A stretch of 64,000 bases of DNA from Lophium mytilinum (GCA_010093605.1 MU004189.1:751834-815833); one strand, 5' to 3'. Counted from the stretch's first letter, positions 245 through 62,503 are shown. Translations and numbers: made by a program. Notes: generated by a model from the sequence alone, not told the origin.

Positions 245-985
245 TCAAACATCTTCATCAAGGAACTTCCTATTCCTCCTCCTCCTCTTCGCCAACTGCG
301 GGCTCCAGATCCCTGCAAACAGATCCTCACACTCATCCTCGTCCTGACTATCAAACTGAAGCTCCTCCTCTTTCCCCTCTTCTTTCCCCCCGGTTCGGAA
401 TCCAGCGCTCTCGCCTATCACCTCCAGCTCCTCTTCTTCCCGCTCCCAGTCCACAGCCCGGCATACCCTCTTCGTCTCCAGAATATACTTTCCCACTTTA
501 TAACGCTGGCTTTCCTCGTCTGCCGCGACGTACTTCCAGCCCAGCACAGTCCCGCAAAGGGCACAACTTATATCGGAGACGGTATGGGCGCCGGTGACGA
601 GCTGTCGCGGAACTGCCTTGTGGATGTGCGTGTTCGGTAATTCTCCCGGCTTACTGCGCAGACTGGTAGCTATAGGAGGGCTCGGCGGCGCTACGAGGTA
701 TGCACGACCATGGCGGCCAGTGAAGCCTTTGCTAATGATGGAGGCCGTGGGACATATATCTGTGAGACAGCGTGCGCAGCGAAGGTGGGAAGAGGAGCCG
801 GTCAGATAGGCGGGTTGCGGCGGTAAGGTGGATATGGTACTGGTAGGGGAGCTGGAGAGAGAGGGCGGTGAGGCGGAGGTTGAGGTTGAGGAACGCCGGC
901 GGAATGGGAGGGAGGGGAAAAGGTAGAGGGGGAAGATGGCGGGGGGTGATGGAAAAGAGGGGAGGGTGGGGGATGAGAAGGGCAT
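245..985 (-). CDS. Yippee/Mis18-family zinc-binding protein
   Basis: Single ORF with CxxC (CARC), GFTGRHGRAYL, LVTGAHTVSDISCxxC (CALC), LGWKY and YKVGKYILE, which are Yippee-domain motifs. Ser/Pro-rich N-terminus. Confidence 0.9.
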   Translation of the reverse strand: MPFSSPTLPSFPSPPAIFPLYLFPSLPFRRRSSTSTSASPPSLSSSPTSTISTLPPQPAYLTGSSSHLRCARCLTDICPTASIISKGFTGRHGRAYLVAPPSPPIATSLRSKPGELPNTHIHKAVPRQLVTGAHTVSDISCALCGTVLGWKYVAADEESQRYKVGKYILETKRVCRAVDWEREEEELEVIGESAGFRTGGKEEGKEEELQFDSQDEDECEDLFAGIWSPQLAKRRRRNRKFLDEDV

Positions 986-2938
986 GTCGTGGCTCAGGTG
1001 TCGTGGTGTTGTTTCGCGTTTGGTGGTTATGAGGGTAGTAATAGACCAAGGTCACTGAGGTGGGGTCAGTGGGTGCTTTCATTCGGGCATCCGGATTAAC
1101 AACCTTAAGAAGAGGAGGTTTCGGTGATTGCTGTTGGACGAGCGCCGGCACCGCGTCCTGAGGCACCGCCCCAAGACGCTTGCAAATAGCCTCTTACGGC
1201 AGAAGTCGTGACGTGGTGTGTCGATGTCGTTGGGTCTCAAAAGCTACCCGACAGCTCACAGGTTGGCGATAAGATAAGACGCAAATAGAAGCGCGCGAAG
1301 CGCCACAACGGCGATGCAGCAAGGCGCGTCGAGGGGCGAGTGCGAGGCTGAACAAGCAGAAAAAGCACCGAGAGTCTCGCAGCCGTTTGGTTGCGAGAGG
1401 CGTCTTCGTTTCTTGTTCAATGCACGATGGTTTCACAGAGCGAGAGGTTGAGGCGGGGCTGGCGTTTCGACTCAGACTGGATGGATCACGGGAATGCGGG
1501 TCGAGCTGGGTCATGCGGTCGACTGACGACTAAAGGATGCTGGCATGCATCACGGGGTCGTTGCTGGCACGTTGGACCGAGTGTGTGCTGATCCGCCGTC
1601 TTACTTCGAACGTCCAGCCTCATCATGGTCCGCGCTCTCCTCTGTCGTCCGTCGTCTGAGCAGACGAAAGACGGCAGACCTCCCCCCTTACCCCTTGACT
1701 ACATGCCTTTCTCCATGTCGGACGAATTTCGTGGACCTCGCCCGTCTCTTTGTAAAGAACGGTACTCTACTGCTAACCCTCAGCATCTCCCCGACGCCGC
1801 TCGGTAGCCGGCATCTCTGCTGTGGAGGTGTGGACGACGCGTTGCCGTAACAAGTAGAGCCACAACTGTGTGAAATTAACAGCAGACGACCGAGGCTGGC
1901 TGGAAGAAAGATCTGAAGTTTCAGCCGTCATCCGATGCACTCCACTGGAGGATGAAGCCACAAGCCCGCTCTCTCCCGGATGCTGGATTGGGGGTTAGCT
2001 GAGCGTCGCCGGGCACCTGAGAACCACGGTTCGTAGTATTTCCTGGGGTCTAGACGGCTGCTGCAGTGAGTTGGTTGCTGCTCCAGTCCGTGTTGCCAGG
2101 AGGCCCTGTCTGTCGCCTGCATGCCGGTCAATACTTTGTGCACCACTCCCCTCAGCGCCGCAACAACAGGTGTGCTGAGTAGTGGAGTTGTTTGGATAGC
2201 AACGATCCCATCGCCAGAGATCTCCACTGGCTCCACAACGCCGCACGCCCTCTCGGGTTATTCTTGAGCCTGCAAAAGCAGCAAGGCGAGATCCACCCTC
2301 ACGCGCGCGTTGAGTCTATGCGATCTCCCGGCTCGGGCCAGGCGATCGGACACAAAAGATCCATGGCCCAACTTCAGCCACCAATACGCTACCACGCGAC
2401 TCCCCGTGCACCTCAGGGGTAACGCCGCACCACTGCACTCTGTTCCCCCGCGCCTCTCTACAAACAGCATTCACCTTCTGGTCGCCCTCGTCACGTGGCG
2501 CCTTCTTTCGGCGTCAAAAGGGCCCTCGCGTCGCCCCATGCCTCGCATCCTCCTCCTAGAAAGGGACCCCCTGTCGTCTAGCTGACCATTCTGATAGGTC
2601 ACTTCATATACAGCCGCACGCTTTCTGCTCCATTTGGCTATATCTCCACCATCGAGAGGGCTTCCAGGTCACATCGGCGCTACGCTCTGAGCCTTGTTTC
2701 CTTTTGTTTCTCCTCAGCGAGCCCAGAGCGCCCGAAACCCGAGCTCAAGCCCCGGTCTGTCTGTTGCACACAGAGCTACTTCTTCCAAAGTAGTCCCGAA
2801 GAAAACATGGCTTGCGGGAGGACTATATATGTCTTGTCCCCAGCCGCAAAACGTAGATCATTGTCAATCATTACTTCTCTGTCTCTGCCTTGTTTCCTTG
2901 CATACACATAAGTCGTTTCGACTCCACACTCGTTAAGA

Positions 2939-4474
2939 ATGTCTATCAAGACTCTTTCTAGCGCGTTTGCTCTTGCGGCGTTGCTCTCTTCGGCCACGGC
3001 CCACACGACCCTTCAGCGTCGTACCCAGACTCCTCTCCCACCATGCTCTTACCCTTTTACCGACTTTGTGTCCTCCGGCTGCTATGTCGACTCTGTCAGC
3101 AGCCGCACTCTTCCCTTCATGGCTCCTATTGAGTTCAACAACGCTACCATCGAGATCTGCACGGCTGCTTGCAAAGTATGTTGTGCCTCTAACTGTGGCC
3201 TGATCTGTGCTGAATTTCTTCGCAGGGCAACGGTTACCGTTATGCTGGTCTGGAATACTATGGCCAGTGCTTCTGTGGTTCCAGTGTCATCGGCACTGCT
3301 GCTCCGGAGACTGACTGCAACCTCCCTTGCAACGGCGACTCTGGCGAGATCTGTGGTGGCCAGGACAGGCTCTCCATCTACCAGGACCCCACTTTCCCTG
3401 AGGCCGACAACATTGCCGTGTCCTCCGACTACATGTCCCTGGTAAGAGCCTTCCGCTTCATACTCATCTCCCCTTCTGCATGCTGACTACTCCCAGGGCT
3501 GCTACACTGAGGCCTCCGCTGGTCGTGCCCTAGCCTACTCCCAGATCAACGAGGGCGCCAACCTCGATGGCACGAAGATGACCACCCAGCTCTGCCTTAA
3601 CGCCTGTGGGGCTAGGGGCTTCCCCTTTGCCGGTACAGAGTTCGGTGGCGAGTGCTACTGCGGTGTTGTGCTTGGGAACGGAACTGTTCCTGCCCCTACC
3701 TCTGACTGCGACAAGACCTGCAACGGGGACTCCACTCAGACCTGTGGTGGTGCCCAGCGCCTGAGCCTATACGTGGCTACCGACTTGGAGTCCACGGAGC
3801 CTTGCGAAGCCCCAGCTGTCTCATCTTCCAGCGCCGCTGCCTCTAGCACCGTCTCCTCTAGCACTTCCTGCTCCAGCACCGTCTCCTCTACCACCGTCTC
3901 TTCCACCTCCTCGGTGTTCAGCTCTTCGACCCTGTCCACCCAGACTACGTCGTGCCCCATACCGACCAACACCTATGTTCCTCCTTCGGCACCCACCACC
4001 AAGACCACCACCACCGGCGCCACCGCTGCCCCGTCCGCTTCCTGCCTGTGCGCCACGCCCACCGCCTGGGCCGGCAAGAAGGCCGTCGGCAACTACCAGC
4101 TCCCCTGCGTCGGCTGCAACGACAACAAAACGCAGCGCCAGAGCTACCCATGGAAGCTGTTCAACAACCAGAATTTCGGCCGCTGCCCCAGCTACGGCAA
4201 GGGCAAGCAGGTCAACGCGTGCCAGGACGCCTGCACGACGCAGTACAACTGGTGCCTGAGCTACGCCAACTCGTGCAAGAACAGCCGCAGCGCGCCCGAG
4301 AGCTTCACCTCTGCGAACGGCAAGTGTCGCCAGCAGTATGCTGACTGCTATAAGGCGAACAACAATGTCAAGGATGATGGACGCTGCACGGTTACCAGCT
4401 CGCCGAAGCCGGTGCCGCAGCAGAGTGACCAGTGGTTCAACTGGTGCTCTAGCTGGTTGAAGCAGTGGTTCTAG
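2939..4474 (+). CDS. Secreted protein: two WSC domains, Ser/Thr linker, Cys-rich C-terminal domain
   Basis: Exons 2939-3175, 3226-3441, 3497-4474 (GT-AG introns 3176-3225 and 3442-3496, frame preserved). Signal-peptide-like N-terminus. WSC motifs GCYxD...YAGLEYYGQCFCG and GCY...FAGTEFGGECYCG. Confidence 0.9.
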
Positions 4475-5945
4475 ATGCCTCGCTAGCGTCGATGCGTTGG
4501 GTCTGGAAATGATCGCAGTGTGTGATGTTGTGAGTGGTTGGTTTGGTGGGGGATGGTGTTGGGGATGGAGGGGAAATGGAAGTGATGCATGGGCGGTATA
4601 ATCGATTGAAAATGTCTAATACTTAATCTTTGATTCTCTTGCTGTATGGGAGGGAATAATTGTATGAATGTATGGGCCTTAGGAAAAATAAAACTAATAA
4701 TTAAACATTCCATGGCCGCTTTCTTGGTGTTTGTGTGTGATTGACTAGCTCCTAACGTGTTCGCACTGTTATGCGTTCTTTTCGCACGCGGTGTAGCATA
4801 AAACATGACGTAAACTCTCAATTCTTCACTTTCTCACCACAGAACCTTGCAATCATCCCAAATCTCTACCAGCAAACACCTCCGTACACCGCGATTTCAT
4901 CCTCCTAACCAACATCAACGCAGCCTACCCAGTCCTGTAAAGCCTCAGCACTTATGCGCGACCCTGCCATCACTACACCTATATCTCAAAACCACCAGAC
5001 GTTGAGGTAAAGTTTGTGGGGCTTGCTATCGCCATTCTGACGCCGGAAGTCGTGATTGCGATCTTCACCCCAGAACTACCCGTCGCTACTAAACCTCCGA
5101 GCGATCCCTGCGAGCTTGAACGTTGGTGCTTTCTTCCTCCGTACACACTTCTCAATGTTTCGAATCACAGCCGTGGATTTGGCAAGGGGTTGAAGCCGTA
5201 AGTACTTTTGGGCGCATTCTGTTTTGATGTAAATCTGTGACTTCGAATTGCACCTATAGTGTAGATTAAATACTACGTGGAACAAAAATTTCTTTCCAAC
5301 ACAGCCAAACAGAAAACAACAGAACCAAGTCCACAACGGATATCTGTACCATGCTCGCGGAGGTAAAAATCCCACAACTCTTGAAACGGCATATGCGCCC
5401 CTGTGCTGGAGGCCATAAGTCTAAATTTTGCCGTCCACGACCGTGGCTCTCGAGTCAACTGGTGAGACATCGAATAATCCCATGCAGCACGCCTCTATTT
5501 TGGCGTTCGGAACTTGTGTGTCCGTGCGTTGTGGTCTACTGCAGGGGCTCTGTGTGCGGCTGGGGACGAGGTCGGGATATCCATGCTTTGGCGATGGAGT
5601 GGTGGTTGCACGGATACGGAGATGGGATAACTGGCGTTCGAGGAGCCGAGTTGAAGGGGGTACGCTTCAGTAGTTTGGTTGTGTGGAAGAGAGAGTCTGA
5701 AAGTTCTTGAGGTCTTTGGTGAACGGCTCACGTGTGCCTTAGAGACCCGAGCGTGGAAAGTTTACACTCGAATTATGAAGGGTGCTGTGTGCAGCTGTGA
5801 AGCCACGCGGAGTATTGAAGCATGAAGGGTCCAAGTGTATAGACTATCGATACCAGGTGCTTTATGTTAGTCGTAAAGCATACAATTCATACTACAAGCA
5901 CAGCTCTACCCCATATACAAACGCCTCGAATGCATTCCCAAACGC

Positions 5946-8900
5946 TCAGAAGTCCACCCTCCCCAAGCCCCTATTTTTCACAGCTCCCTGCACTTCATCC
6001 TTGACCTTCTCAACCGCCTTTTCCCACTTCACCCGATCCATCTTCTCACCCGAATCAACTCCCTCTTCAACCACCCAAACCAACCACTTCACCACCGCCA
6101 CAGCCTTTGCTAGGTCCCCCTCCTCTTCGACCACCTTCACCAGATACGTTCCCAGCGCCTCCAAATCCTCCTTATACGGCCCATCTTCCCGAAACTCCTC
6201 ACACCACGCCGTAATAGCCTCCCTCAGCTCGTCCATCTGCCATAGCTTCTGCGTCGTAAACGTCGGGCGTTTCGGTCGCTGAATCTGCAGCAGGCGTGGC
6301 TGATGCGGCGCGGGAGCTGGAGCATTGGCCTTACGGGCATTGCTTGCGACGATTGCGAGGTTCGAGCGGACCTTGAGACGCTTCCGACGGTGCTCTTCCA
6401 GCACCTCGCGGCGGAGGTCTTCTGGGAGGGCAGCGAGGAAGTCGGGGTCCAGGTCTTCATCTTCGGGTGGCTTGCTGTTGCCAGGTTCCGCGCTTCCTGA
6501 GCGGGAGCGAGGGATTTTGGTGGTAATGAAGTTGGACTGCGTTAAAGTAGATCCGCCAGAGGTCGTGGTCGCTGTCGCGGACTTGGGAGGCCTGCCACGT
6601 TTGCGAGGGAAAACAGGCGCGGACTTCTTGAAGACTGGGGGTAAGATCCGGTTCTTGCGGGGTGATTGAGGGAGAACGGGTTGATCACCAGTGCGTCTAG
6701 AGGGCGAGCTTGGGGTTTCCTGATATTGTGCAAGGACTTCTGCCTTGACGTCGTCAGGGAGTGCAGCTAAGATCTCGGGATCGAGCTGAGACTCGGTGGG
6801 TAATGCCGTTAAAGAAAATGGTGCCTTTTTTTGCCTGGCGCGATTGAGAGGAGATGGCGAGGTAGGACGAGTATGTCTTGCTAACTTGGCTCGGATGGTC
6901 CCCGGAAGTTCGGCGAGAACTTGAGGATCAACCTGAGAGGGAAGTATGAACTGTGTACCTAGCGTGTTCAGAGGCCTTCTGCTTGGGCTGTCCTTGTTCA
7001 AGCTTTCAGCGCCAAAAGCGACTTGATCTGGTTGGGCTCTTGGTTTCTTTGGCGTTTGAACATCGTCCTGGATAGGATCATCCGCTTTGGCGACACGGAC
7101 TTTTGGTTCACTGACCCTGAATTGGAGACGTCTCTGGCTGCCATCCGCTTGCCCATCCGCAGCCATTTTTATCGGTTCTAGTTTGGTCACTTGAACTCCA
7201 ATTCCCCGTAGCTCCCCAGGGGAAAAGCCGAAGCCTTTCATGATAGACAATGCTTCCTTGGTCAAGACCTCTGCGGCATTCGTAGCAACCCCAAGCACCA
7301 AGCTCTTATTGTGAGTATCGCATTTTCCATGCCCAAGATGCTTGGGTGGATCTAGAGGTGCGTCTGGAGAGCGTCTCATAATCTTCATCGTGAACTGGCG
7401 GCCTTTAACTCGTTCCTTCAGTAAACGCTTACTCAACTCTGTACACAAGCTTCCAACAAACTCTTCAGCTTGGTCCTGGTTTTCGAACCGTACGCCCCAG
7501 TTGACTTCCGCTGAAACCGACTTTCGGATAACTTGTTCACCAACCTCAGCTCGATCGATACCTCTTGAATATTCCCAGAGCTTGTCGCCTGTCTTTGGGC
7601 CCAGTGTTTGGACCATTCTCTCTTTTGTGACTTCCCGGATATCTTTCACTAACTTTATCCCTATTTCTTCTAGTTTTCCCCCAGTACTCCATGCTACACC
7701 TGGAAGATCTTGCACTTGTAGATCACCGATAAAATCGAGGATGTCTTCCGGCTTGATCTGGTGCTGGCCGGCCGGTTTCGCTTTCCGAAGAGCAAGCTTT
7801 GCTAGAAGGATGTTGCCTCCAATGCCCACCGAAACATTGCAGCCAGTCCTTCTCTTGATCTGATCTCGCAATGCCTGGGCTACTCCGTCCGCCTTAGCTT
7901 GTTCTCTGTATATGCTCCCTTCGCTAACTTTCTTGCCATCAGATCCACCTTCCGCAGCACAGAGTGTCGATATATCGATAAGTGCTTCATCAACACTTAC
8001 ACTTTGAACTATGCCATCAATAGCAAGAATACAGTCGTAGAAACCTCTGCTGGCTTCCTCATAGGCTGGAAAGTCGTAGGGCAGAATTTTTAAATCGGGG
8101 CATAGTTCTTGTGCTCGCTTCATCCACATCCCATTCTTCACACCAAATTTTCTAGCAGGATAATTGCAACTGGCAATCTCAGATCCACTACCGTTTCCGT
8201 GAGCAACTACAGCAGGCTTGTCTTTATATTGAGGGTACTTTTTGAGGGACACGGCGGCAAAGAAGCTGTCGAAGTCAACATGGAGGATATATCGCCTGGC
8301 ACCTGGGGGCCGCTTCTGTTTAGTCTTCTGAGATGAAGACTTCTCTGCTGCCAGTGCTTGAAGCTGAGACTTCAAGTCTGCCTTCCAGGTCGAAAGATGA
8401 TGTAACCGTGATTCGCGGTAGTATTGATCTAGGAAGTTGGGGTCCACGACAGTAGACTTTCGGATCTTCGGATCAGCGAGCAAAATCGCATTATGTTCTT
8501 CTGCCGTCAATTTCGTCTTCTTAGATGGAAAGGCAACGTCGTCGTCACTGGACCTCTTGTTGTTCTGTGCGGGACGAACAACCGGGCTCCGAGAGACGGC
8601 TACTGGAGGATCTGGGCTCGAATTCGAAAGAGCTGAATCGAGGTGTCGAAAGGGTGAACTAGTCTTCGGCGGAGTCACAAGTTCCGGATCCTTGGTGAGA
8701 CCGTCCTCTTGATTAAGAGGTGCTGCGGGCCCATCGTGATCTATACCGAACTCAGGTTGATGTGAGGGAGGGAGATCGACAATGTCATCTTCGTCCGGCG
8801 TCGGTGGTCGGGTTTTCAGGAATGGCGAGCGCACTGAACTACTTGGTGTACTTTCTGCCCCTTTGAGCTGACTTGTATACCAACTAGTATCCGTCTGTTC

Positions 8901-9485
8901 CCGATATCCTTTGGATAGTGTGTTTGCCTGGCTGACGACTTTCCCGTTGTCAAACCCTAGTATCTTCTGGCCGGCACCTTCATCCAAGACCCTGAAACTA
9001 TCCCAAGGCAGAAGCTTTCCAGCCTTCACACTCTCAACGACCCATGCAGGCTTGACTATTCGATATCTCTTGAACTCTATTGCTTTCTTCGGAGTAAGAC
9101 TGCTAGCGATGATGTGCGTGACCGTCGTTTTGCCGTCGAGGTATTGCATAAATCCTCCTCCATGTGACACGATGAGTTTGTGAAGATCGTTCAGAGATGG
9201 TTGTGTATAGCCGTTGACTTGCGCGACGATTCCTCGAAAGATGGCGGGCTTGTCTCCCGACTGCAAGCGCAAATCGGCATCGAGGTTCTGCAGCTTAATC
9301 TTCTTTCGCCGAAAGTAGTCTGTGAACCCTCCAAACTTGGAGCTCTCATACTCGTCACCGTCCTCATCATCGAAAGTGTCTATAAAAATTGTTAGCTTGG
9401 AGACTTCCAGACGAAACGATTCATCCATACGGTTCTCGATGCGCTTTCGCACCGCATTCGAGTTGCTTTCCAGCCTGGAGCCCAT
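5946..9485 (-). CDS. REV1: DNA repair protein Rev1 (Y-family deoxycytidyl transferase)
   Basis: N-terminal BRCT domain; SRLHHLS, HVDFDSFF, SCNYPAR and SVDE motifs; UBM-like repeats (LDPEILAALP, LDPDFLAALP); Rev1 C-terminal domain. Probable in-frame intron 9380-9430 (GTATGG..CTAAC..TAG). Confidence 0.97.
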   Translation of the reverse strand: MGSRLESNSNAVRKRIENRMDESFRLEVSKLTIFIDTFDDEDGDEYESSKFGGFTDYFRRKKIKLQNLDADLRLQSGDKPAIFRGIVAQVNGYTQPSLNDLHKLIVSHGGGFMQYLDGKTTVTHIIASSLTPKKAIEFKRYRIVKPAWVVESVKAGKLLPWDSFRVLDEGAGQKILGFDNGKVVSQANTLSKGYREQTDTSWYTSQLKGAESTPSSSVRSPFLKTRPPTPDEDDIVDLPPSHQPEFGIDHDGPAAPLNQEDGLTKDPELVTPPKTSSPFRHLDSALSNSSPDPPVAVSRSPVVRPAQNNKRSSDDDVAFPSKKTKLTAEEHNAILLADPKIRKSTVVDPNFLDQYYRESRLHHLSTWKADLKSQLQALAAEKSSSQKTKQKRPPGARRYILHVDFDSFFAAVSLKKYPQYKDKPAVVAHGNGSGSEIASCNYPARKFGVKNGMWMKRAQELCPDLKILPYDFPAYEEASRGFYDCILAIDGIVQSVSVDEALIDISTLCAAEGGSDGKKVSEGSIYREQAKADGVAQALRDQIKRRTGCNVSVGIGGNILLAKLALRKAKPAGQHQIKPEDILDFIGDLQVQDLPGVAWSTGGKLEEIGIKLVKDIREVTKERMVQTLGPKTGDKLWEYSRGIDRAEVGEQVIRKSVSAEVNWGVRFENQDQAEEFVGSLCTELSKRLLKERVKGRQFTMKIMRRSPDAPLDPPKHLGHGKCDTHNKSLVLGVATNAAEVLTKEALSIMKGFGFSPGELRGIGVQVTKLEPIKMAADGQADGSQRRLQFRVSEPKVRVAKADDPIQDDVQTPKKPRAQPDQVAFGAESLNKDSPSRRPLNTLGTQFILPSQVDPQVLAELPGTIRAKLARHTRPTSPSPLNRARQKKAPFSLTALPTESQLDPEILAALPDDVKAEVLAQYQETPSSPSRRTGDQPVLPQSPRKNRILPPVFKKSAPVFPRKRGRPPKSATATTTSGGSTLTQSNFITTKIPRSRSGSAEPGNSKPPEDEDLDPDFLAALPEDLRREVLEEHRRKRLKVRSNLAIVASNARKANAPAPAPHQPRLLQIQRPKRPTFTTQKLWQMDELREAITAWCEEFREDGPYKEDLEALGTYLVKVVEEEGDLAKAVAVVKWLVWVVEEGVDSGEKMDRVKWEKAVEKVKDEVQGAVKNRGLGRVDF

Positions 9486-10120
9486 CTTGCGCGCAGGTGT
9501 TACGCGAGTGCCCTTGTAGCAAGTCCGCCGCCTTGGACAGGCTCATTGTCGTGGTGCGGGCCCAAAATCACGTCGACATCAAATCTCGAGTGAATGCGAC
9601 ACGATGCGCGCGTCAAGGTGGAGTTTGGCCCTCGTTCGCAAGGCGGGAAAAGTGGCACCGCCCCGCCAAGCTCTCAAGGTTGCTCACCAGCTCGAATAAA
9701 TTAACTTCAGTCTTCATTCTGGACAACGCCATTAGAAATGGCTTGACCATTCCACACTAATCAAGCTTTCATATCATTGGAACTCCGGAAAAGGTGTTAG
9801 AGCACTACAAGTAATGGTATTAATGCTTGCAAAGAAGACGATTAATTGAGTGCCACCTTTTGCATGCCCTGCCCGCGAAGTGGAGCATTCTGCCGGCGGT
9901 GAACCGCTTAGCGGCTGGGCGCCAAGATTTACAGCTTTTTCTACCTCTTCCTCCTCTCTCTCTGCGCGCTTCTCTTCTTCCCGCTCTCTACTTTCAAATC
10001 ACTGAGACGCCCATTATACTCAGTACACCCACTCCTTTGTACAGCGCACGTCTTGTACAAAGTCCTCCTCTTTCTACCACTCCTGCAAGCATCGACTAAG
10101 AGCTATCCAATCGAGCAAAA
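9486..10120. promoter_or_regulatory. Divergent intergenic/promoter region, REV1-FPR4
   Basis: Head-to-head starts 635 bp apart. CGCG-core motifs near 9502, 9606-9615 and 9873; GCGGGAAAA at ~9643; pyrimidine tract at 9935-9995. Confidence 0.55.
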
Positions 10121-11908: not shown

Positions 11909-13390
11909 AGCCCTTACCATCAAGAAGATCTCTCACTGTACGCACTTGAAAACTCAGCTCCATGTACAACCACCCGACTCCACTCCTGCGCAGAAGAGCT
12001 CGCGCAGGTCCCGCCTGTGTCGCGTACCTGCGTCTCTTCCATCTCTCTCTCTCTTTCCTTCCGTCACTCTCGTGTTTCCATTTCATTAATTGCATTGCGT
12101 CTCGAGATATCCGACTTGCATAAACTGGGTCTTTGCGTATTAGATTTGTGCAGGGAGGAAGGATTTCTCGCCTCTAATGTCTCACGGCTTCTCTCTCCAT
12201 GCTGCCTATGTCTCTTCCGATAATTGGTTTCTGAGGGTGGCCGGAGCGGATGACGAAGTGGTAGGGCATCTGCTGCGGTGTTTGCAAGATGTTTCGATAG
12301 CTAGGTGGGCTCGACGTAGGTGGTGGCTCGCTGAGGACGCTAAACTGTTCCTGTTGCGATAAAAAAGTTGGGGGGGTGGGGGGTGTCATTTTCGGAGTCT
12401 TTAATTGGGCGGGTCGGATAGGTAGTCCAATGTCAGACCTTATAAAATATATGAGAAGTCTGAGTGTGGATGATGTGAGGTTTGTTATATGACATTGTCT
12501 TTCCATCTCCTCCCGTTTCAAAATGAGATGCTGGGGTGTCACAAGCAGTGGCAAGTAGGCCGACAATTGAGAGGAGTATCGAAAGATGCAGTGTCTTGTC
12601 AAAGTTCTGGGCACACTTGCGCACCACCACTGGAGGTGCTTTACGGCTTTCTTGCAGTTTCGATAAGATGTTAAATCCCTGAGAGCTTGATTCTGACATA
12701 TCACGCCGTGACAACTAAATATACCCCCGAAGTGCAGTCTCGAGACTTCAGTTTGGGTGCTTTTTCTGGCCACTGCTTGGGTCTACCTACAGGCTTTTCA
12801 TGACCTAAAGTCGATGTCAGGGCCAATGCAGTGGAAAATAGGCTACCTTTTAGTTAGGTGAGGACCCGCTAATCGAGGCACTCCTGACAGAGGTGTCCAC
12901 CTTCCAAAGAAGCACTCACAGTGGTACATCGGAGTGCCCGATCTTATAGCTACTACAATGTCAAGGTTGATACAGTACAATGTGACAGGCTTCTACTTGC
13001 CCCAATATCTGCGAGTTGGGTTACTCTTTACAGAGGGGTCGAGCGAGCAAGAGTAGAGCCTGGGTAGAATGATGCCTGTGTGTCCAATTTTACAACCTAG
13101 TAGGGCATTATATATTACCTCCTCGACCGAGCCCCCAGTTCTGAGCCCTAAATATGCTGTGCTGTACATCCGAAAACCCCCAAGCCAGCCACCGAAAGGC
13201 CGCGGCATCCCTACCCTAAAACTCCAATGCATTGCTATGCTCCGCTTCGCTATGCCCTGAACCCAGAAAAACTTGGCCGTAAACTCCAAACGCGATGATA
13301 GTATGCCGAAAAATCCAGACAATATAGCACCGGGGAGCACTCAGCCAGCCCTCAGCGCAAGATCGACAAGCCGATAAAAGCAGCCCATCT

Positions 13391-17708: not shown

Positions 17709-18507
17709 CCCAACGAAGCTGGATGCTACGGGAGTTGGGGCCGTTCAGCGACCGGACGAGACGGCAAAGTGCAGTCCTCTGTGACTCATGAGGATTGCAC
17801 TTGCAAGGAACTATCACCGTCGACTCAGGCTCTCGTTCAACCTTGCTACGTTGCATCAATCAACATGTTACACGAAAAGTCCGGGAACGTACGATCGACC
17901 CATCAGCGCCTCCTTTATACGTCGACGATACCCATTGGTTTCTATAAACGCATTTCAGCGAAGGGTCACGAGGTGTTCTAAGGCGTTTTCTGGCGTTCAT
18001 ACGGCCCAGTCATTTATCTCTTTCTTTCTTTCATTTCCTGTAAGGTTTTCTTGGATATGCAGATCAGCCTGGCATTGGCGATCTGATGAATGGGCTGGTA
18101 CTTTGCTCCTAATGCTCGGAAAGGTCATCATGTGTCCGTCCCTGTCTCTATATCATTCCATTTTCTATCATCTAAACATGGTATCAGTGACTGAACTTGG
18201 TACGATGATCATGATAAAATCAGCATCGCCTAGATAATGCATCTCAGCACGCATCAAGCCATCAAAAAGAAAAGCATACATCATCCGTCCGGCGCCAAGG
18301 ATCGAACTTGGGTCTTGCTTTGGCCCAAACACCAAAGCCAAAGCACATTTTGGCCAACTAAACCACACTGGATTGAAAGATTTCTTCAACAATCTATCTT
18401 AAAGGCACTGACAGGGTCAGAGCCTGTCCTACACTTTAGCTCCCATTGCCTTTGTCTAACAGCTACCCCACCAGCACCACCCACGCTTTTCCCGGTCGAA
18501 CCTCTCC

Positions 18508-43961: not shown

Positions 43962-44136
43962 AATCCGCCGGATCATAACTCTCCTAAAAATCCTCATCAT
44001 ACCCCTCCGGCAACTCATCCTCCCCGCTCTCATACCCATACGGATCCCCAATCTGCCGGATCATAACTCTCCCAAAAATCCTCACCATACCCTCCGGCAA
44101 CTCATCCTCCCCGCTCTCATACCCATACGGATTCCG
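43962..44136. repeat. Tandem duplication of ~88 bp at the 3' end of the F-box gene
   Basis: Copies start at 43962 and 44050. They differ by four C/T substitutions and a 1-bp indel. Confidence 0.93.
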
Positions 44137-52943: not shown

Positions 52944-54258
52944 ATCAATCACTCTATCAACGGACCTCTTCATTGCTGTGGATATCTGTTGCAATGGCTA
53001 CAGACATTGGAAGGCAGCCTTGTCTGGAATTTAGGAGCCCATACTGGCGTTTGTGGGGGTGGGGTGCGTAGTCACGACGGTGATTTGGAAAAAGAAGGAA
53101 TGCTGGAAACGAACGCCTGCTCGGTCTATGGATTGCAGCCACGCCTCATTTGTGTAGTACGGAGTTCGACATTAGCATTTCATAGGAACGGCGTCCATCC
53201 ATCGATAACTATCACTAAAAGCGACGCCTCGGCTGAGCTTGCCGGAGCTATTTCAACCGGAGTTTTCTATGATCCGAACAGCTTTTGTTACGGTTCAAAA
53301 GGTACGTTACGTGTGCAACATTTGTTCTTTGTTTTCTCTCCCTACATTACGACACGTGCTCTGGCACATGTTTCTGTTGATCCTTCGAGTATTGCGATGC
53401 ATGGCGGCACTTTTTGGACACTTTGGGCTTTTCTTGGGACTACGGGTGGTGTTTTATGGTTTCTGTCTTTATTTCCTTCCTTGGGAGATCAAAAGGGGTC
53501 TTGGGGCGCGTCAGGGTCTAGCTGCATCAGTTTCAGGGCCATGTGGCTGCGGCTCGGCCTAGGAAACAGGAAAGGGGCGTTTTTGGAAACGGACGGAGAG
53601 TGCACTGAGATGTGTGCTTGCTTTACTGGGGCGGCTTTTTCGTGCGTTTCGAACAGCCCAATGGGCTTTATGATGTTATGTCTACTGCGGATGATGATGG
53701 AGGGTGGAGGAGTGTGCCGGGTGGAGGTTGTGGATTGTGGAAGATTGATTGGGGACTGCGAGTTGAGTTTGGTTGGTTGTTAGGGCACACGAATAGAGAC
53801 GTTTGAACTGGACTTTTGAGTGTTTTGCGGGGTGATTCGTGCTTCTTCTTGTGACGTGAACGGCACTAAATGGTACTACATCTGGCGCTGAACCCACCAA
53901 CAATGGCGAAGAACTCCATAATGCTGCTAAGCATAGACCTTGAAACTAAATCTGCCAGCCTAGCCTGCGATCGTTGGGCTAGACGATGTGAAAGAAGCGT
54001 CTAAATCTCACTCATGGCTTAGCGACGATAGCGAGGGACAGAACTCCTAAAGCTAAAGCACTCTGATAAGTCTAGGCTCCATATTCATCACGATGAAGCC
54101 GAGAAATTCCAAAAGGGGTCCCTATCACTCACCTAGCACACAACTGTCTCATCTAGTAAAACCATGTCTTCATGTACTTTTCTACCTTCGTATCCCAAAA
54201 CCAACCACCGCCCATCCCAACCTCATCCCCACACTCGATGCCCCCATCCGCCCCCCTC

Positions 54259-57200
54259 CTACCCATAATTAAACGCATTCCGACACAACGGACACGAACT
54301 CGCATTACTCGTCTTAAACCACTTAAACAAACAACTCGCATGAAACAGATTCTTGCACGTGCTGCACCGCTTACTCGGCAACTGCTTATCCGCCCCGATA
54401 ATGCTGTAGCAAATCGCGCACTCGCTCTGCCCCTTCAGCGCACCGACCACGTTGCGCCGCCACGCCGTCAGCCCGTCGACCAGGTTGCCGTTGCTGAACG
54501 CAATCACGCCCTGCGCGGACCGCAGCCAGCTCTGCCACTTCTTCTCGTCGACGGCGACACGGTTGAGGCCCTCGACGAGCGCGGGGTGCAGCGGGTAGGT
54601 GGGCGGCAGCGCGATGCGGATGCGCATCGTTTGCTCGTCGACTTCGTAGCCGGCGGTGACTTCGCGGGCGCGGGGGGAGATTTTGAGGAGGAGGGGCTCG
54701 TCGTCGGCGGGTTGGGCGGCGGACCAGGCGCTGACGGCGGCGAGGGCGGTGGTGATGACGTGGGGGGAGATATGGAGGGCTTCGTTAGGATTTGGACGGG
54801 GTTTTACGAGATTGATGGGGGACACGTACGAATTTCTCGGTCCAGGACTCGACGGCGATGACTTTCTGACGCGATTTGCAGTCGATCCACCACGTCTTTG
54901 CGAGCGAGGGCATGTGCGTTAGGCAGAGGTAGTAGATGTGGGTTAGTAGCCATTGTGCATCGCGCTCTGGAGGCTCGACGTCGGGGGTGTAGGTTGTGAC
55001 GTCTAATTTAGCTACATCAACCGGTTTGCCGCGGGCGTGACCGAGGAAGTCGAAGGTAAAGTCGAGCAGGCCGGGGAGGTAATCGCCTTCCTTGATATGC
55101 TCGATATAGTCCGTCTTCACTTTGTACGATGCGTGCTGCATGTGGTCGAAGACGAGTAGCCAGCTAAGCAAGTAGCCCCGTAGTAATAGTGGCATATTAC
55201 GCTCGAAGCTGGCGTTGGCGAGGGATTCTAGAGTCGGTGCCTCGAGGATGAGAGAGAGCAGTTCCTCGGGGAGTCGAGCTGTGGACTTGTCAAGCACCGC
55301 GTCGATCGAGATTTGTTCTTGTGCCACTGGGATTTTCTGGTGCAGGATATCGAATGCTGCTTGCTGGACTGGCTGAGATTCTACGTAAAGCAAGGGAAAT
55401 AGCTCCTCGGTTTCATTTAGGTGCTGGAGCGGGATCTTAGATATTTGTCGGGCGAGTAGCTCGTTGACGATCTTCAGAGGCTGGTGGAAATCGTCGGGAA
55501 AGTGTTGAGAGTGCTTGAGGAGGTTGATCAGGCCTCTCGCGACGTTCTCTTCCGAGTCCTTCCAAGCATCCACAAGGTCGTCGTTCGGTTCCTCGCTTCC
55601 TTTGAGAGATCTCAGAATAACGTAAAGCTTCAAGGAGGCATGAATGAAAGGGATAGTAGCATCGGAGTTCGAGCCGCGGTCGTCGATTTCTCTTGGTAAT
55701 GACCATTGATCAGCCAAGCAGTTGAGGATCTCGCCCCAGTGTGATCCATAGATATCGCTCATCAAGGGCAGCAGTGAAGTTAGAGAGCGACAGACTTCCG
55801 CACGAATTGACAGAGAAACTGAGTGGTCTTCCAGCCATGGTATGACATGCTTGACGAAGAAAATAGCTCGCTGTTTGGCGATACCTTCGCCCACGTCTTC
55901 GTGATTATGAAGAATCAAGTTTAGCATTACCAAGTGCCGGAGACCTGCGTGAGGATAATTTAGAATCTGTCACATTGACAATCGAGATACAAGGGGCTGT
56001 CACGTACCTTCTTCAGACTTCTCAGCAATGTCTAAGCCAGTGATATCAGCAACATACTCATTACATAGCCTTGTCGACGATTTCGTAGTGGACAACGGTA
56101 AGCTATATCCCGTCAAGAAAGCCGCGGGATAAAAGGGACCTAAATAATGTCAGCAAAAGTTCCCATCAGCTTGATATCGACTGCTTACTCTTGCTTTTCC
56201 GAAGGCCTTTCAAAGCGGTCTGAAGATTCGGAGTTCTCTGGCTGTTCCACCCGTGTATTTCAATCAATTCTGTGATCAGCATGCTTATGGCCCTCGCGCT
56301 GTAGTAGGAAGAGGACAAAGTCTCCTCGGAGTCGGCTTGTAGAGATGCTAGCGCCGACTTCAAGAAAGACGCAGAGCCTGCACTATCCTCATCCCACCAA
56401 GTTCCGTTGGTTTTGATTTGGTTGTTCAAGAAGTTCCGTGCATCTTCTAAAGAAAGAATAACGACATTCTCAACTTCCGGGGTGTACTGAGCCCATAGGT
56501 TGTTAGAGCCCGCAAGCGCAAGGTTGTCCTCAATGAGCTGTACCGTTAGCGCGGTGAGGCGGTAGATTTCTTCTTGTCGTCCGATTGCGATGTGCTCAAA
56601 CAGGCTCGTTTCGCATAAGACTCTGCTAGTATAAGATGCGATGCGAAAGGCGGCCGAGAATCCGTCCCCATCTCGAGGATAAGTCTTGCTGAACGCCTCT
56701 TGCGAAGAGCTGGAAGGAACAAGATAGGACGTGCCTCCAAGGACATTTGTTATAGAGAGAGAAGCTCTTGGTTGTACATCAAGAAAGGGGGCCAAGGCTG
56801 CTGTCCATGCACTTCCATCGGGTAGAAGGCCGTCAGCAACGTCTCTTGGGGGAGAGACCGAATCCTCCGCTTCCCAGATTTTCGTTGCAAGTTCTACCAG
56901 AGTATTGACAGATACAGAGGCTCGGGAAACTTCTTTAAGGCCATTCTGGATGACATCAAACATTGATTGCTGAGAGTTCACGCCATCAGAACCCCGTGTG
57001 AGGATGGAGTGTATGCTGTTGTTGACATCTGATGCTGCTTGTGCTATTTGGTCATCTGTAGACTCAGCAAGCAACAACAAACTGCGGAGCAGCTCGGACC
57101 CTTCTGGTGTAGGAATGAATCGCTTCAGCAGTAAGGGATTAAGCTTCGTGACTTTCTGGAAGCCTTCAAGTGCATTGGACGTCGCGCTAGCAATTGACAA

Positions 57201-59479
57201 TGACTTCGTCATGCTGGACAGAATGTCGTCTGCCGTCTCAGTAGCAATAGCAGTGGACGGACTCGGGAGAAGTTGTCCAATAAATAGCCAATCCGAACTG
57301 CCTTCTAGAGCGCTATGAACCTTCGCGTTTAGGTAGGTCTGCAATTCTGCATTTGAAGAAGCCAAGTTGAAATCAGTGGGAACTTTTGGCGAGGTAAGCA
57401 AGTGTCTCAGGGCCTCCAGCTTTGGTGGAGAATCTAGGCTTCCTAGAACGGCTTTGAGTGTTGCTTTCCACGAGTCTTCGAATGCCGCTTGGTCTTTGCA
57501 AGCGTACAGGATGTCCGCAAGTTGTGAGCAGGATGGCGAGATGAAAAGGCTCGGAAGATCATCATGCACAAAAGACATCAGCTCGTCTTTGCAGTGCTCC
57601 TTGCCAAACACAAGACTTCCGCATAGACGGAGGATCTCTGCGACGACACCTGCTGCTCCGTACGGTTTTCCCTGACGGCTTTTCAAGACATCTATAGATG
57701 CCGAGACTACCAAAGCAGTTGCCGAAGACAGCACCGGACGGGAAAGCCCTGATGAGTCATGATCAAGAGCATAAGCTTGCAGACCAGCAAGTCTAGCTGC
57801 TTGTTGTATCAAGGCATTATGAGACTTTTCAAAGTCTTTGGACTGTTCTGGTGCTGAAACTTGTATGTCTTCAATGAGCAACTTGGCGTATTTCGGCCAC
57901 TCCTCTTGGAGAATGGACGGAAGGATTCCAGACACCATGGCCTTGCCGATAATCTTAGGGCCGTTAGGTCCGGGTATTGCCCATTGCGACTGTTCAGGGC
58001 TTGGTCGCAAGTACTGCGAGAAGATTGGCAGCACCATTTCGCTCATCAAATTATGTTGGTCGTCCTTTGGAAGTAAATTGCACACTATCAAAGCGGCATG
58101 GACATAGGCACTGAAGGCTGCTGTAAGATTGGCACGAGGCTCATCCTTCTTGATTATACCGTTGTGCATTGCTCCAAGTAGATCGACCGCACCAGCCAGA
58201 GTAGTAGGCAGAAGTGGTTCTGGTAAGAGGGTGAAAAGTCTCGCGACGCCATCCCAGAACTCTCGCGGTCCGCTTTGCGAGCCCCGTTTCAGGAAATGCT
58301 GAAACTTCTGAGTGGCCGTCTTCTTCCCAGAGTAGTGGTCAGTCCAAAGCAAGGGGAATGACTCCGTTAGCAAGACGACAGTCTCAACATATTCATATGC
58401 CGATCCAGTCTGGTCAGAGCTCAGACCTTGATATAGATAGGACTTGCTGAGGATACGTAGGTGTGAAGTTAAAGAACCTTGGGGTCTGTTAGCTCAGAAT
58501 GCCCATGGGATATTCTTCCCAAGAAACGGAAGGTCATGAAGATATTAGACTGCAGGATTTAGTCTTGGCCAAGAAATCACTCACTTTTTTGCCTTAAAAG
58601 GCACGTCCTCAGAAACCTATGTGTTGAGCGTCTTACGGAAGCGTCTTCATAAGTTGCAAACTCCCACACCTTCTGATCTCCCAGAACTGCATCGTAGTCT
58701 GATTGGTATTTGGTAGAGTCCTCCGGCTTCAAGTCCGTCAAAAGACTCCCAATGACGGCGATGCAAGCTGCTATGACTCGACAGTACTTCCCTTCAGCAT
58801 CATCCGGACTGACAGTTCGCTCGTCGCTGAGCGTCAACGCAGTCTCGTTGTCGATTGCATAGCGACAGTACTCCAGAATCGGCTGTTGGTATGCCTTGCG
58901 AAGGCTGTGGAGTTTCTCTGGGGTGGAGAAGACCAATTTTATGGACTCCTGCGTGGCCTTCACAACTGACCGGTCGTTGTCGTAGAGGCCACATAGCCAA
59001 GCTCCCACAGCCTTCGGCATATACTTAGCTATTCTCTTACCGGCAGCGGCGCAGATCTGACCTTGCAGCGACTGGGCAAGCTGACGAACTCTTCGCGAGC
59101 TATCTATCGAGGTGCGGGGAAATGTCTTGATCTGAAACAGTATCGTATTACTATCTGTATAATGTGTACATCCATGGAGGGCACCCACCCATGCCTCCAG
59201 TATCCCATCTTCCACCTGTCCACCAACTGACAAGATGTGCGTTTGTAGATCTTCCAGCGCCTTTGCCTTTGTTGTGCTGTCTTTTTTCGAGAGATTCTTG
59301 AATGCGACGACCACATTAGGATCTGATATTGCGGAGAGGTCTGGAGGCTCCGAAATATAAGATAACGGCGAAGAAGAGGCTCCGAATGCTGTCGCTGAAG
59401 CCGCACCAAAGCCCGAACCGAATGCGCTGGACGCAGCCCGGCTGCTGCTGGCTTGTGCCTTGACTTGGCGCTTGCTCAT
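54259..59479 (-). CDS. RKR1: E3 ubiquitin ligase listerin (Ltn1/Rkr1)
   Basis: N-terminal FKNLSKKDSTTKAKAL..SIDSSRRVR and C-terminal RING ECAICYS..CSTCKNLFHASCLFKWF..CPLCR. Introns 59188-59132, 58584-58478, 56188-56140, 56007-55945 and 54829-54772 (last has an abnormal acceptor). Confidence 0.95.
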
Positions 59480-59853
59480 GGCGACGATGGAAAAAAGAAA
59501 TCTAGGAAATCCGAAGCGTTGTAGGCTGCCGGAGAAGAAAAGAAGAATGAATGTAAGAGTGGTTGTTGCCTATGATTTGAAAGAGCAAATGGCAATGACG
59601 AAGTTCACTTAAGCCGAAGTATTTCCGAAAAAACGCTAAGCCCCTTCCGGGTCATTGAGGCAACTGCATGTCTTCTCCCCGGGCATAAATATATAACCTT
59701 TACACCAGCAGCGCTCAACACACTCACCACTACATACAGGCCCCTTTCCTTTCATACAGCCCGTACCTAAGTCCCATTTCTGGCTAAGCTCTCACCGGGG
59801 TACAAGCTGTTTTCGATTCACTACGGTGAAAGACACCTCCCACCTCCCTCAAC
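59480..59853. promoter_or_regulatory. Compact divergent promoter, RKR1-RAD3
   Basis: Head-to-head start codons with 374 bp between them. TATA-like ATAAATATATAA near 59685. Confidence 0.6.
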
Positions 59854-62262
59854 ATGAGGTTTAACATAGAGTGAGTCCCAGTAGCTAATGGCATGTAGCC
59901 GCGCTGAACATGGTACAGGGAGCTTGAGGTGCTCTTTCCGTATCCAAGCATATACCCCGAGCAATATGCCTATATGTGTGACCTCAAACGCACCTTGGAC
60001 GCAGGTGGCCACTGTGTCTTGGAGATGCCTTCGGGAACAGGCAAAACCGTGTCCCTTCTGTCCTTGATCGTGGCATACCAGCAGGTTCAGCCTGAGAAGC
60101 GGAAACTGATATACTGCTCACGTACCATGTCCGAGATCGAAAAGGCTCTTGCTGAGCTGAAGGCGCTCATGAAGTACCGAACCGAGCAATTAGGGTACGA
60201 GGAAGAGTTTAGAGGGCTGGGTCTGACGAGCCGTAAGAATTTGTGCCTGCATCCGTCCGTAAAGCGCGAAAAGAGTGGTTCCGTGGTTGACGCACGATGC
60301 CGAAGCTTGACGGCAGGGTTTGTCAAAGAAAAAAAGGAGCGGGGTGAAGACGTCGAGATGTGCGTGTATCACGACAACCTCGATCTTCTGGAGCCTCATA
60401 ACCTCATCCCACCAGGCGTCTGGACATTCGATGGCCTGCTGAAGTATGGCGAGTCACAAAAGCAGTGCCCATACTTCACGGCAAGGCGAATGATGCCATA
60501 TTGCAACGTGATAATTTACTCCTACCATTACCTGCTTGATCCTAAGATCGCCGAGAGAGTGTCGAGAGAACTCTCGAAAGATTGCATAGTTGTCTTCGAC
60601 GAAGCTCACAATATCGACAACGTGTGCATAGAGTCTCTAAGCATCGATTTGACTGAAGACTCATTACGAAAAGCTACAAGAGGAGTCAATAATCTAGACA
60701 GAAAGATTACAGAGATGAAGTCAACCGATGCCGAGAAACTCCAGAGCGAGTACGCGAAGCTGGTCCAGGGCCTCCAAGAAGCAGACGAGGCGCGGAACGA
60801 GGATGCGTTCATGTCGAATCCGGCATTGCCAGATGATTTGCTAAAAGAAGCTGTGCCTGGCAATATACGGAGGGCAGAGCACTTCGTTGCTTTCTTGAAG
60901 CGTTTTATTGAATACCTCAAAACACGAATGAAAGTGCTGCACGTCATATCAGAAACACCACCTTCCTTCCTCAACCATCTCCGAGATCTCACATTCATTG
61001 AGCGAAAACCACTCCGCTTCTGTGCCGAACGCCTTACGTCTCTCGTCCGTACCCTCGAGCTCACAAACATTGAAGACTATCAGCCTCTCCAAGAAGTAGC
61101 TACATTCGCCACTCTCATTGCTACCTACGAAACCGGGTTTCTGCTCATTCTTGAGCCATTTGAGTCTGATACAGCTACCGTACCCAATCCAATTCTCCAT
61201 TTCACATGTCTCGACGCCGCAATAGCCATCAAACCTGTGTTCGAGCGCTTCAGCTCCGTCATCATCACCTCCGGGACCATGTCTCCCCTCGACATGTACC
61301 CAAAGATGCTCGCCTTTTCAACAGTCATCCAACAATCCTACACCATGACTCTCGCCCGCAAATCCTTCCTCCCCATGATCGTCCCCCGCGGCACCGACCA
61401 AAGTCGCATCACCTCCGCCTTCCAGCAACGCAACGACCCCTCCGTGATCCGCAACTACGGCAACCTCCTCACGGAATTCTGCAAGCTAACCCCCGACGGC
61501 ATTGTTGTCTTCTTCCCCTCCTACCTGTACATGGAAGGCATCATCTCCATGTGGCAAGGCATGGGCATCCTCGACACCGTTTGGAAATACAAACTCATCC
61601 TCGTCGAAACCCCAGACTCGCAGGAAACCGCCCTCGCCCTCGAGACGTACCGCACGGCGTGCAACAACGGCCGCGGCGCCGTGCTGCTCTGTGTCGCGCG
61701 AGGCAAGGTGTCCGAGGGCATCGATTTCGACCACCATTATGGCCGCACCGTGTTGTGCATCGGCGTCCCGTTCCAGTACACCGAGTCGCGCATATTGAAA
61801 GCCCGCCTTGAGTTCTTGCGCGAGACGTACCGGATTAAGGAGCAGGAGTTCTTGTCGTTCGACGCTATGCGCCACGCGGCGCAGTGCCTTGGTCGTGTGT
61901 TGCGTGGGAAGGATGATTACGGTATCATGGTTATGGCAGATCGCCGCTTTCTTTCTAAGCGCCAGCAGCTACCGAAGTGGATCCAGCAGGCCCTGGACGA
62001 CAAGTACGCCGATCTGAGTGTGGATCAGGCTGTGTCGGCGGCAAAGGCCTTTTTGCGCGAGATGAGCGTGCCGTGGAGCCGTGTGGAGCAGCGGGGAGTG
62101 AGCACGTGGGATGCGGAGGACCTGGCGATGCACAAGGCGAAGCAAGAGGAGGAAATGATTAGGATGCTAGAGGAGGAGGCGCAGAATGGTGGTGGGATGG
62201 TGGAGGTTGATGAGTATGGGGGAGATGATTTGGATGAGGTAATGGCGGACTTGGATGCTTGA
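59854..62262 (+). CDS. RAD3: TFIIH helicase XPD/Rad3
   Basis: Exon 59854-59870, intron 59871-59918, then FPYPSIYPEQ, EMPSGTGKT, Fe-S cysteines, DEAH, TSGT, RGKVSEGIDF and QCLGRVLRGK. Confidence 0.98.
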
Positions 62263-62503
62263 TGGGTGGATATCCAGTAATAGATTGTAAGATTTGGGAC
62301 TTGGGACTTAGGATGGGGATTAGTAAACTTCGGAATTGCCCAAATTGATATGGATTTGCCCTGACTTGCGGTCCAAGAAAGCGCAGAGATGCTCAACATC
62401 AATTTGAACACAAGAAGAGCAGTCAATGAGAAGTTCCAACGATTTAAATTTTGCAGTTCTCTTATTAGTCTAAGGTTGCTTTTGTACATCTTCATGGAGC
62501 GCC

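Follow-up and report, generated by a model that had tools for sequence, protein, structure and literature searches.

The genome of the filamentous dothideomycete Lophium mytilinum carries discrete islands of strand skew, in which one strand is C-rich for a few hundred base pairs and then G-rich for a few hundred more. The islands, each a single coupled unit of about 1 kb around a GC-rich centre, are anchored to genes, mostly about 350 bp upstream of the stop codon. On either side of the centre, the strand that runs with its 3' end toward it is pushed to C and the complementary strand to G. We characterized them in a 64-kb stretch of contig C9 (GCA_010093605.1 MU004189.1:751834-815833; the window) and in 80 further stretches of 10 kb, together 807 kb of scannable sequence or about 2% of the 43.4-Mb assembly. 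Islands were detected with a 350-bp matched filter that yields a score, D, and whose width shapes the inner profile of the islands. Coding segments were predicted with our own amino-acid-level scorer, which is unvalidated genome-wide and missed short genes such as that of the Yippee family; the predicted frames had a Pfam match in 14 of 16 open reading frames (ORFs) checked.

A sequence-only reading of the window had named ten places where the top strand turns from C-rich to G-rich, and at all ten the left 350 bp are C-rich and the right 350 bp G-rich (Fisher P from 2.7e-4 at RAD3 to 4.9e-36 at a DUF1772 gene), with refined centres at 620, 4250, 6242, 13899, 18730, 35229, 36744, 44369, 54475, and 61675. 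The largest jump in the window (D = 267) is greater than any obtained in 100 shuffles at each block size, for which the maxima were 94, 94, 130, and 180 with blocks of 1, 3, 30, and 100 bp. Reverse, G-to-C switches also occur in the window (8 versus 11 C-to-G at D of at least 100) but are weaker and AT-richer. The accompanying A/T switch that had been described was as claimed at the WSC-domain gene, reversed at the Yippee-family gene, and not significant at the other eight sites. The polarity is indeed the same in plus- and minus-strand genes, but this carries no information on independence from gene orientation because a C-to-G flip reads identically on both strands. Clustering of islands within 10-kb loci was not significant (12 pairs versus 8.8 expected, P = 0.16).

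The proposed rewriting of synonymous sites was found in all eight genes covered by the codon-level tests (the CinA-family gene and the site near 36700 lay outside them): within single exons, four-fold degenerate sites on the coding strand go from C at 0.7 to 0.9 to G at 0.65 to 1.0, with P from 1.3e-2 (WSC) to 7e-29 (F-box-like gene). When the jump was compared with 200 synonymous shuffles using a 200-bp filter, five of the eight genes stood out; the observed value was reached in 0 of 200 shuffles for REV1, DUF1772, the F-box-like gene, and RKR1 and in 2 of 200 for the patatin-like gene, but in 25, 83, and 20 of 200 for Yippee, WSC, and RAD3, respectively. One control gene, HET1, likewise lay beyond its synonymous shuffles (0 of 200). 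The description of focal sites was thus borne out in the form of mirror-symmetric units of about 1 kb that alter synonymous sites, an intron, and untranslated regions (UTRs).

Across the 807 kb, C-to-G switches outnumber reverse switches by 71 to 40 at D of at least 130, by 45 to 14 at 150 or more, and by 19 to 1 at 200 or more. In the first 61 stretches the core GC content is 0.62 at C-to-G switches versus 0.49 at reverse ones, the arms extend for about 450 bp, and there is little TA skew. Excluding the two runs that flank the window leaves 60 stretches, which give 73 islands per Mb, or about 3,200 per genome; the surroundings of the window are more densely populated (16 of 48 gene ends versus 23 of 148 elsewhere, P = 0.012). 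An apparent effect of contig size (18 of 114 ends on contigs C1 to C7 versus 28 of 101 on the rest, P = 0.045) was due to the surroundings of the window and was set aside. Signed skew is only 0.006 to 0.042 at 0.6 to 5 kb from the centre, so that the skew is gone beyond 600 bp. At four-fold sites the two sides are close to mirror images (C 0.67 and G 0.10 versus G 0.70 and C 0.09). In a profile of 44 gene-oriented islands, which were selected on the switch itself, four-fold sites are C 0.71 and G 0.08 at -300 and G 0.72 and C 0.08 at +200, the arms reach -700 and +450, and the composition is at baseline by -800. Two-fold sites in the same islands follow the arms, with C among pyrimidines falling from 0.80 to 0.17 and G among purines rising from 0.42 to 0.86, and codon positions 1 and 2 are likewise shifted. 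The sense (G) arm is stronger than the C arm, and the bias is insensitive to neighbouring bases. Islands can be tightly packed, with five within 6 kb in locus L005 and some pairs about 1.1 kb apart.

Of the 71 islands, 20 have no gene call; among the 51 that could be assigned to a gene, 45 are centred 100 to 650 bp upstream of a stop codon, compared with 45% expected (P = 1e-10), and the other 6 are at different positions in coding sequence. Islands are present at 46 of 215 terminal ends, or in about one gene in five, versus 6 of 62 internal exon ends. This supports the part of the sequence-only reading that placed the switches mostly near gene 3' ends; a preference for convergent junctions, which was also suggested by eye, did not hold, since island frequency does not differ between convergent and tandem gene ends (26 of 102 versus 14 of 76, P = 0.28). 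In 4 of 40 pairs an island is present in both partners (rho = -0.01). In RAD3 and RKR1, both genes examined, the RNA contig continues for about 750 nt past the island centre; these contigs, which are spliced but come from a run not annotated as RNA (X3), indicate neither strand nor true transcript ends. The one RNA run of identical sequence had zero differing letters. TAA is under-represented among the stop codons of island genes (5 of 44 versus 41 of 128 at other ends), as the G arm would predict. One C-to-G island lies in apparently non-coding DNA that is perhaps an extended 5' leader belonging to a gene on the minus strand (L016:4760-5750), and a strong one (L149:8350-9350, D = 258) is centred about 380 bp past a probable start codon and at least 800 bp before the stop, in a frame judged by eye.

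The two arms belong together. Across 123 gene ends unselected for a switch, skew at -800 to -500 from the stop anticorrelates with skew at -250 to 0 (rho = -0.47, P = 5e-8), no such anticorrelation holds for the baseline skew farther upstream (n = 47), and a G arm was found at 7 of 13 ends with a C arm versus 6 of 66 without one (P = 6e-4). These results bear on the view that there is no focal unit at all, only the generic fungal gradient (C-rich at the 5' end, G-rich at the 3' end, reset at introns) in unusually strong form. Non-island genes show only a weak G rise over their last 300 bp, and the C arm does not behave as such a gradient would require. A strong C arm at -800 to -500 occurs in 13 of 79 long terminal segments, whereas the first 300 bp of 35 long genes contain no strong four-fold C arm (mean four-fold C 0.29, G 0.22), and the 100 bp before predicted ATGs have an all-site skew of only -0.22. 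The C arm climbs from baseline inside the uninterrupted exons of RAD3, REV1, and the F-box-like gene, and it passes unchanged through an intron of RKR1, whose orthologs without that intron still have the island; intron reset is weak in general, with a slight drop in skew following 22 of the 30 introns predicted. Complete but weaker islands also lie far from any ORF stop, at 4.4 kb in a nonribosomal peptide synthetase gene (L026), at 2.4 kb in NPR3 (L029), where the island is near the start of the gene, and at 1.0 kb in L008. As the sequence-only reading had held, the pattern therefore goes beyond a generic transcription-unit gradient; as a full account, that gradient is largely refuted by the coupling of the arms, the bare gene starts, and the islands far from stops, and we consider it improbable.

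The gradient itself is established, as McLean and Tirosh described in 2011 an averaged C-to-G change along fungal genes, Pezizomycotina included, for which the available text gives no cause (PMC3315797). The islands share with it the C-to-G direction on the coding strand, a G bias that is strongest near the stop and reaches into the 3' UTR, occurrence in many but not all genes, effects on four-fold sites, non-coding DNA, and amino acids, and an AT skew that does not run in parallel. They differ in that the published curves are averages with a 5' ramp, whereas the C arm here is anchored at the 3' side, coupled to the G arm, and mirror-symmetric with it around a GC peak; the islands are about 1 kb wide, do not occur where the coding sequence of long genes begins, and are in some cases located mid-gene, and the 5'-end C bias expected of the gradient failed to appear. 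The islands probably underlie the averaged "group four" curve of that study. A literature search that covered subscription journals thinly returned no description of paired, 3'-anchored skew islands of 1 kb at the ends of fungal genes. What is new is the resolution of the fungal gradient into discrete, paired, and conserved 1-kb units; what was known is the averaged skew itself.

Within the window, the leftmost island (230 to 1050, centre about 620, D = 187) is in a minus-strand Yippee-family gene (PF03226; ORF 245-1051), about 375 to 400 bp before the stop, and four-fold C/G counts change from 51/11 to 13/23 across it (P = 6e-6). The island of the plus-strand WSC-domain gene (PF01822; 3900 to 4600, centre about 4250-4320, D = 118) is in the last exon, with a G arm that extends into the 3' flank (G56 C12). 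REV1, identified by its domains and encoded on the minus strand (ORF 5946-9542), has an island at 5880 to 6850 (centre about 6250, some 300 bp before the stop, D = 173) that occupies the final 0.9 kb of the 3.6-kb ORF, the four-fold profile being flat over the first 2.7 kb. In the last exon of the minus-strand patatin-like gene (13300 to 14400, centre about 13900, about 500 bp before the stop, D = 149), four-fold sites go from C 0.73 to G 0.84 (P = 2e-12). A short minus-strand gene of the CinA family with a predicted intron (PF02464 on 18684-18959) carries an island at 18380 to 19000, centred at 18730 about 220 bp before the stop (D = 194; P = 9e-22, all sites). Just downstream of this gene is a tRNA-like sequence whose anticodon loop could not be assigned (18287-18372, minus strand), and upstream of it are two abutting 9-bp tandem arrays of about 10 copies each (19005-19185); a similar 9-bp array produces a skew peak at L017:8718.

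The strongest island of the window (34800 to 35660, centre 35229, D = 267) spans the plus-strand DUF1772/anthrone oxygenase gene (PF08592) and both of its flanks (5' C85 G19; 3' G75 C19). Next to it is a lopsided island (36400 to 37100, centre about 36740) with a strong C arm (L -105) and a weak G arm (R +26), whose host is uncertain; a minus-strand ORF at 36500-37111 has no Pfam match. The F-box-like gene (minus strand) has its island at 43900 to 44850 (centre 44369, about 385 bp before the stop, D = 264) in the last 0.8 kb of a 1.5-kb ORF, where four-fold sites go from C 0.91 to G 0.89 and the 5' half is flat (P = 7e-29). An 87-bp tandem duplication (43962-44132) crosses the stop of this gene and repeats its C-terminal peptide. 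At the 3' end of the minus-strand RKR1/listerin gene, which encodes RING and UBC-like domains, the island (54050 to 55100, centre about 54480-54580, about 220 to 320 bp before the stop, D = 159) changes four-fold sites from C 0.79 to G 1.00, and an RNA joint places an 80-nt intron in the 3' UTR about 125 nt past the stop (54053-54132). The RAD3/XPD island (61000 to 62340, plus strand, stop at 62262) has a broad centre at about 61700-61900 and comprises the last 1.2 kb of a single long exon, with four-fold C 0.82 giving way to G 0.65 (P = 2e-8) after 1.1 kb of flat codon usage, and it is found at the same site in orthologs. The RAD3 protein is 100% identical to one assigned to Lophium mytilinum, the next matches being to Lepidopterella, Cenococcum, and Glonium, as befits a dothideomycete. 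RNA contigs of RAD3 and its convergent neighbour, which we take from its translation to be protoporphyrinogen-oxidase-like, end 13 nt apart (62440-62453).

The C arm of RKR1 spans an intron at 54772 to 54829 (minus strand) that is spliced in an RNA contig, and this intron shares the C-richness of the arm (C23, G7), compared with C60 G59 in the four other introns of the gene (P = 0.013). It starts with GT and ends with CAT instead of AG, although this may be an assembly error; the G missing from the invariant acceptor lies within a G-poor arm. Orthologous introns end with CAG or TAG in all five cases in which one is present, and the remainder of the 28 other loci have no intron at this position.

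Comparison with loci from metagenomes, to which taxon labels were given from the nearest named hits only, indicates that islands persist at the same genes across distant Pezizomycotina. Among 79 RAD3 loci, ordered by a quick tree, the C-then-G pattern appears at the same 3' place in the loci nearest Cenococcum, Delitschia, Rhizodiscina, and some Pleosporales, and it is strongest in three loci nearest the lecanoromycete Seirophora; it was not found in most Capnodiales/Mycosphaerellales-like and Myriangiales-like loci or in the distant ones, and just five loci pass a strict all-site criterion (L068, L078, L083, L097, and L099). A full RKR1 island is present in L097, L099, L116, L083, L070, and L075, while in L106 to L115 the C arm is accompanied by no more than a short spike of G and the Alternaria-like L080 to L085 have little skew pattern. 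Island strength at RAD3 and RKR1 is uncorrelated over 20 loci (rho = 0.28, P = 0.23). After near-duplicates were removed by hand, island density per 100 kb was 17.8 in 3 Lecanoromycete-like, 4.8 in 9 Pleosporales-like, 1.6 in 7 Capnodiales-like, and 0 in 13 loci whose identity does not exceed 76%. The divergent RKR1-RAD3 pair (54259-62262; L042 to L120) is syntenic in most Pezizomycotina-like loci, and its downstream neighbour is common only to the window and two Cenococcum-like loci.

The composition of the arms constrains the force acting on silent sites. An equilibrium fit, which is rough because its exchangeabilities were borrowed from two pairs of other fungi, predicts four-fold T 0.39 and G 0.35 when only the transitions C>T and A>G are biased, compared with the observed T 0.13 and G 0.70. 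Since transitions alone predict a T-rich G arm, biases of C>G and T>G are needed as well, and deamination alone fits the islands badly. Four biases were fitted on the G strand: the transitions C>T and A>G, and the transversions C>G and T>G. The C arm approximates "everything to C" (negative log likelihood of 2047.6 for an "X>G only" model versus 2046.0), and the sense G arm adds C>T, the bias of which is 1.55 there and 0.22 in the C arm. In C arms of two pairs of other fungi, which lack a full G arm, entry into C was raised 5.5- and 2.95-fold, and exit from C in four pairs was 0.81 (P = 0.44), 0.65 (P = 0.054), 0.39 (P = 0.006, n = 61), and 0.64 (P = 0.35) fold; raised entry with modestly lowered exit lies between pure mutation and pure fixation bias, and one pair favoured each. 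A substitution spectrum from reads, drawn from 40 of 652 differences, had too few events and was not used; among these, C/G exchanges made up 6 of 11 in the RKR1 core for run X4.

From the anatomy of the islands we infer, as a tentative best guess, that they are putative long-lived recombination-initiation sites shaped by gene conversion that is biased by mismatch type. Double-strand breaks would be positioned by gene-end chromatin, and resection would leave 3' overhangs, of the top strand on the left and the bottom strand on the right, that pair with the donor. If donor-directed repair were better for G:G than C:C, for G:T than A:C, and for purine:purine than pyrimidine:pyrimidine mismatches, the conversions favoured on the overhang strand would be G>C, T>C, A>C, and G>A, which would generate C-left and G-right arms one tract long, with the GC peak arising where the two arms overlap and a weak generic 3'-end G bias added to the sense arm. 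Such a ranking, in which A:G would also be repaired better than C:T, yields the observed sign. C-C mismatches are handled specially in Schizosaccharomyces pombe (PMC4154643). Mirror arms of conversion-tract length and a central GC gain, which a conversion hotspot would require, are both present, and all four fitted G-strand biases carry the sign predicted by conversion, which we count in its favour together with the coupling of the arms, their indifference to sequence context, and the loss of skew beyond 600 bp. In Zymoseptoria tritici, median conversion tracts are 432 to 539 bp with a weak GC bias (bioRxiv 10.1101/2022.11.30.518637), and 1435 of 2578 hotspots are exonic, with no enrichment reported at transcription starts (PMC5844332); these lengths and locations fit the scale and place of the islands, which we estimate here at about 3,200. 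Their regional (P = 0.012) and lineage variation would also fit a population-level drive.

Several points weigh against biased conversion. The break or recombination site offered by the sequence-only reading is retained only through repair bias: mutation at human hotspots strips C from the single-stranded strand left of the break (Hinch et al. 2023, PMC7615360), whereas C is gained left of island centres, and so the published polarity of resection mutagenesis is opposite and the model depends wholly on repair. Human meiotic breaks resemble the islands in their symmetric kb-scale flanks and complementary changes but are also context-dependent and positioned by PRDM9. The asymmetry described by Palsson 2025 (PMC11922761) is one of mutations and not of conversion. 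The Zymoseptoria hotspots come from the same fungal class and number in the thousands, yet hotspots inferred there from linkage disequilibrium are short-lived, 6% being shared with the sister species, in contrast to islands that persist across classes; the available text of that study reports no 3'-end enrichment and contains 0 occurrences of "skew" (PMC5844332), and GC-biased conversion in 10-kb intergenic windows of Z. tritici is weak or absent. Divergence in the C arms of other fungi did not single out fixation bias, the difference in C>T between sense G arm and C arm points to transcription, and the placement of breaks 350 bp before the stop is unexplained by the model. The fuller proposition, that skew-biased conversion toward C on the invading strand, initiated at thousands of stable sites within gene 3' ends of filamentous ascomycetes, is strong enough to reshape codon usage and protein sequence and possibly even to remove a splice acceptor, and that this caused the published skew, is possible but one that we would regard with some doubt.

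Transcription-linked mutagenesis of single-stranded DNA at gene ends, a possible though doubtful explanation, would accommodate several of these points. The G-rich strands would be exposed by a pause or R-loop of sense transcription over the G arm and by antisense transcription running upstream across the C arm, and would be subject to deamination and to Rev1-type insertion of C opposite lesions, yielding G with positive feedback. The directional anchoring to stops, the stronger sense arm with its extra C>T, the nearly full fit of "X>G only" to the C arm, the 3- to 5.5-fold rise in entry with little-changed exit in one pair, the weak 3' G rise of non-island genes, and the fact that C>G is the REV1 signature (PMC7615360) all argue for it. 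It would, however, require near-equal antisense activity in divergent geometry inside exons, convergent pairs show no excess of islands, G runs are not preferred, and hosts such as RAD3, REV1, and RKR1 are flat in upstream codon usage (C4 0.27 versus 0.33, n = 6 versus 28, P = 0.06). The fungal rule near transcription starts, where a promoter C skew has been described (Fujimori 2005, PMC555766; Bourras 2012, PMC3411245), is C-rich RNA, which has the wrong sign. Selection on the RNA or on transcription, in the form of C-arm/G-arm fold-back, polymerase II speed, or a termination signal, would account for conservation of the site in orthologs, for centres at a similar distance upstream of the RNA contig ends, and for lowered exit from C in 3 of 4 pairs. 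We consider it the least probable of the alternatives, as 13 islands show no specific pairing (mean folding z of -0.08 versus synonymous and +0.05 versus local shuffles), 6 islands contain only short low-complexity inverted matches, the RKR1 intron follows its arm, and codon positions 1 and 2 are shifted too. Nor did the cores share a motif of useful frequency: the best 6-mer, GACACC, occurs in 15 of 44 cores versus 5.3 expected, and several 7-mers exceed their shuffle maxima, but the null was self-normalised and none is found in most cores.

Replication origins with a focal error-prone footprint, toward which the sequence-only reading leaned, are unlikely. A symmetric bidirectional shape and exposed lagging templates that would be the G-rich strands speak for them, as do human origins, which have focal mutational footprints of 1 to 4 kb with local GC gain and skews (PMC9645720). 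The polarity that the reading had called established, with a G/T-rich leading strand, nevertheless fails for fungi with mapped origins: the leading strands of three yeasts are C/A-rich, and their skew jumps, although they likewise change sign at a point, have the opposite polarity, an amplitude of about 9%, and a slow decay, upward jumps marking termination zones of 2 to 10 kb (Marsolier-Kergoat 2012, PMC3459929). The islands have no long-range skew, form tight clusters, and have their centres within transcribed exons, at a set distance before the stop, so that independence from gene direction fails. Human origins and the bidirectional asymmetry of CpG islands (PMC2817419) resemble them in local GC gain and focal skew inversion, but those systems are tied to promoters or mapped origins and show long-range asymmetry, whereas the islands lie in 3' exons without a long-range component.

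The averaged 5'-C/3'-G skew of fungal genes has been without an explanation since 2011, and the islands turn it into a set of about 3,000 positions in each genome for comparison with maps of breaks, conversion, origins, or R-loops. Whatever their cause, a four-fold G or C frequency of about 0.7 at a fifth of gene ends will distort analyses of codon bias, dN/dS, and gene prediction. If the conversion model is true, it would constitute a second kind of biased gene conversion, acting on strand skew besides GC content, and hotspots would be locatable in fungi without crosses, with a recombination map readable from one genome. Skew islands may mark where chromosomes break and recombine.

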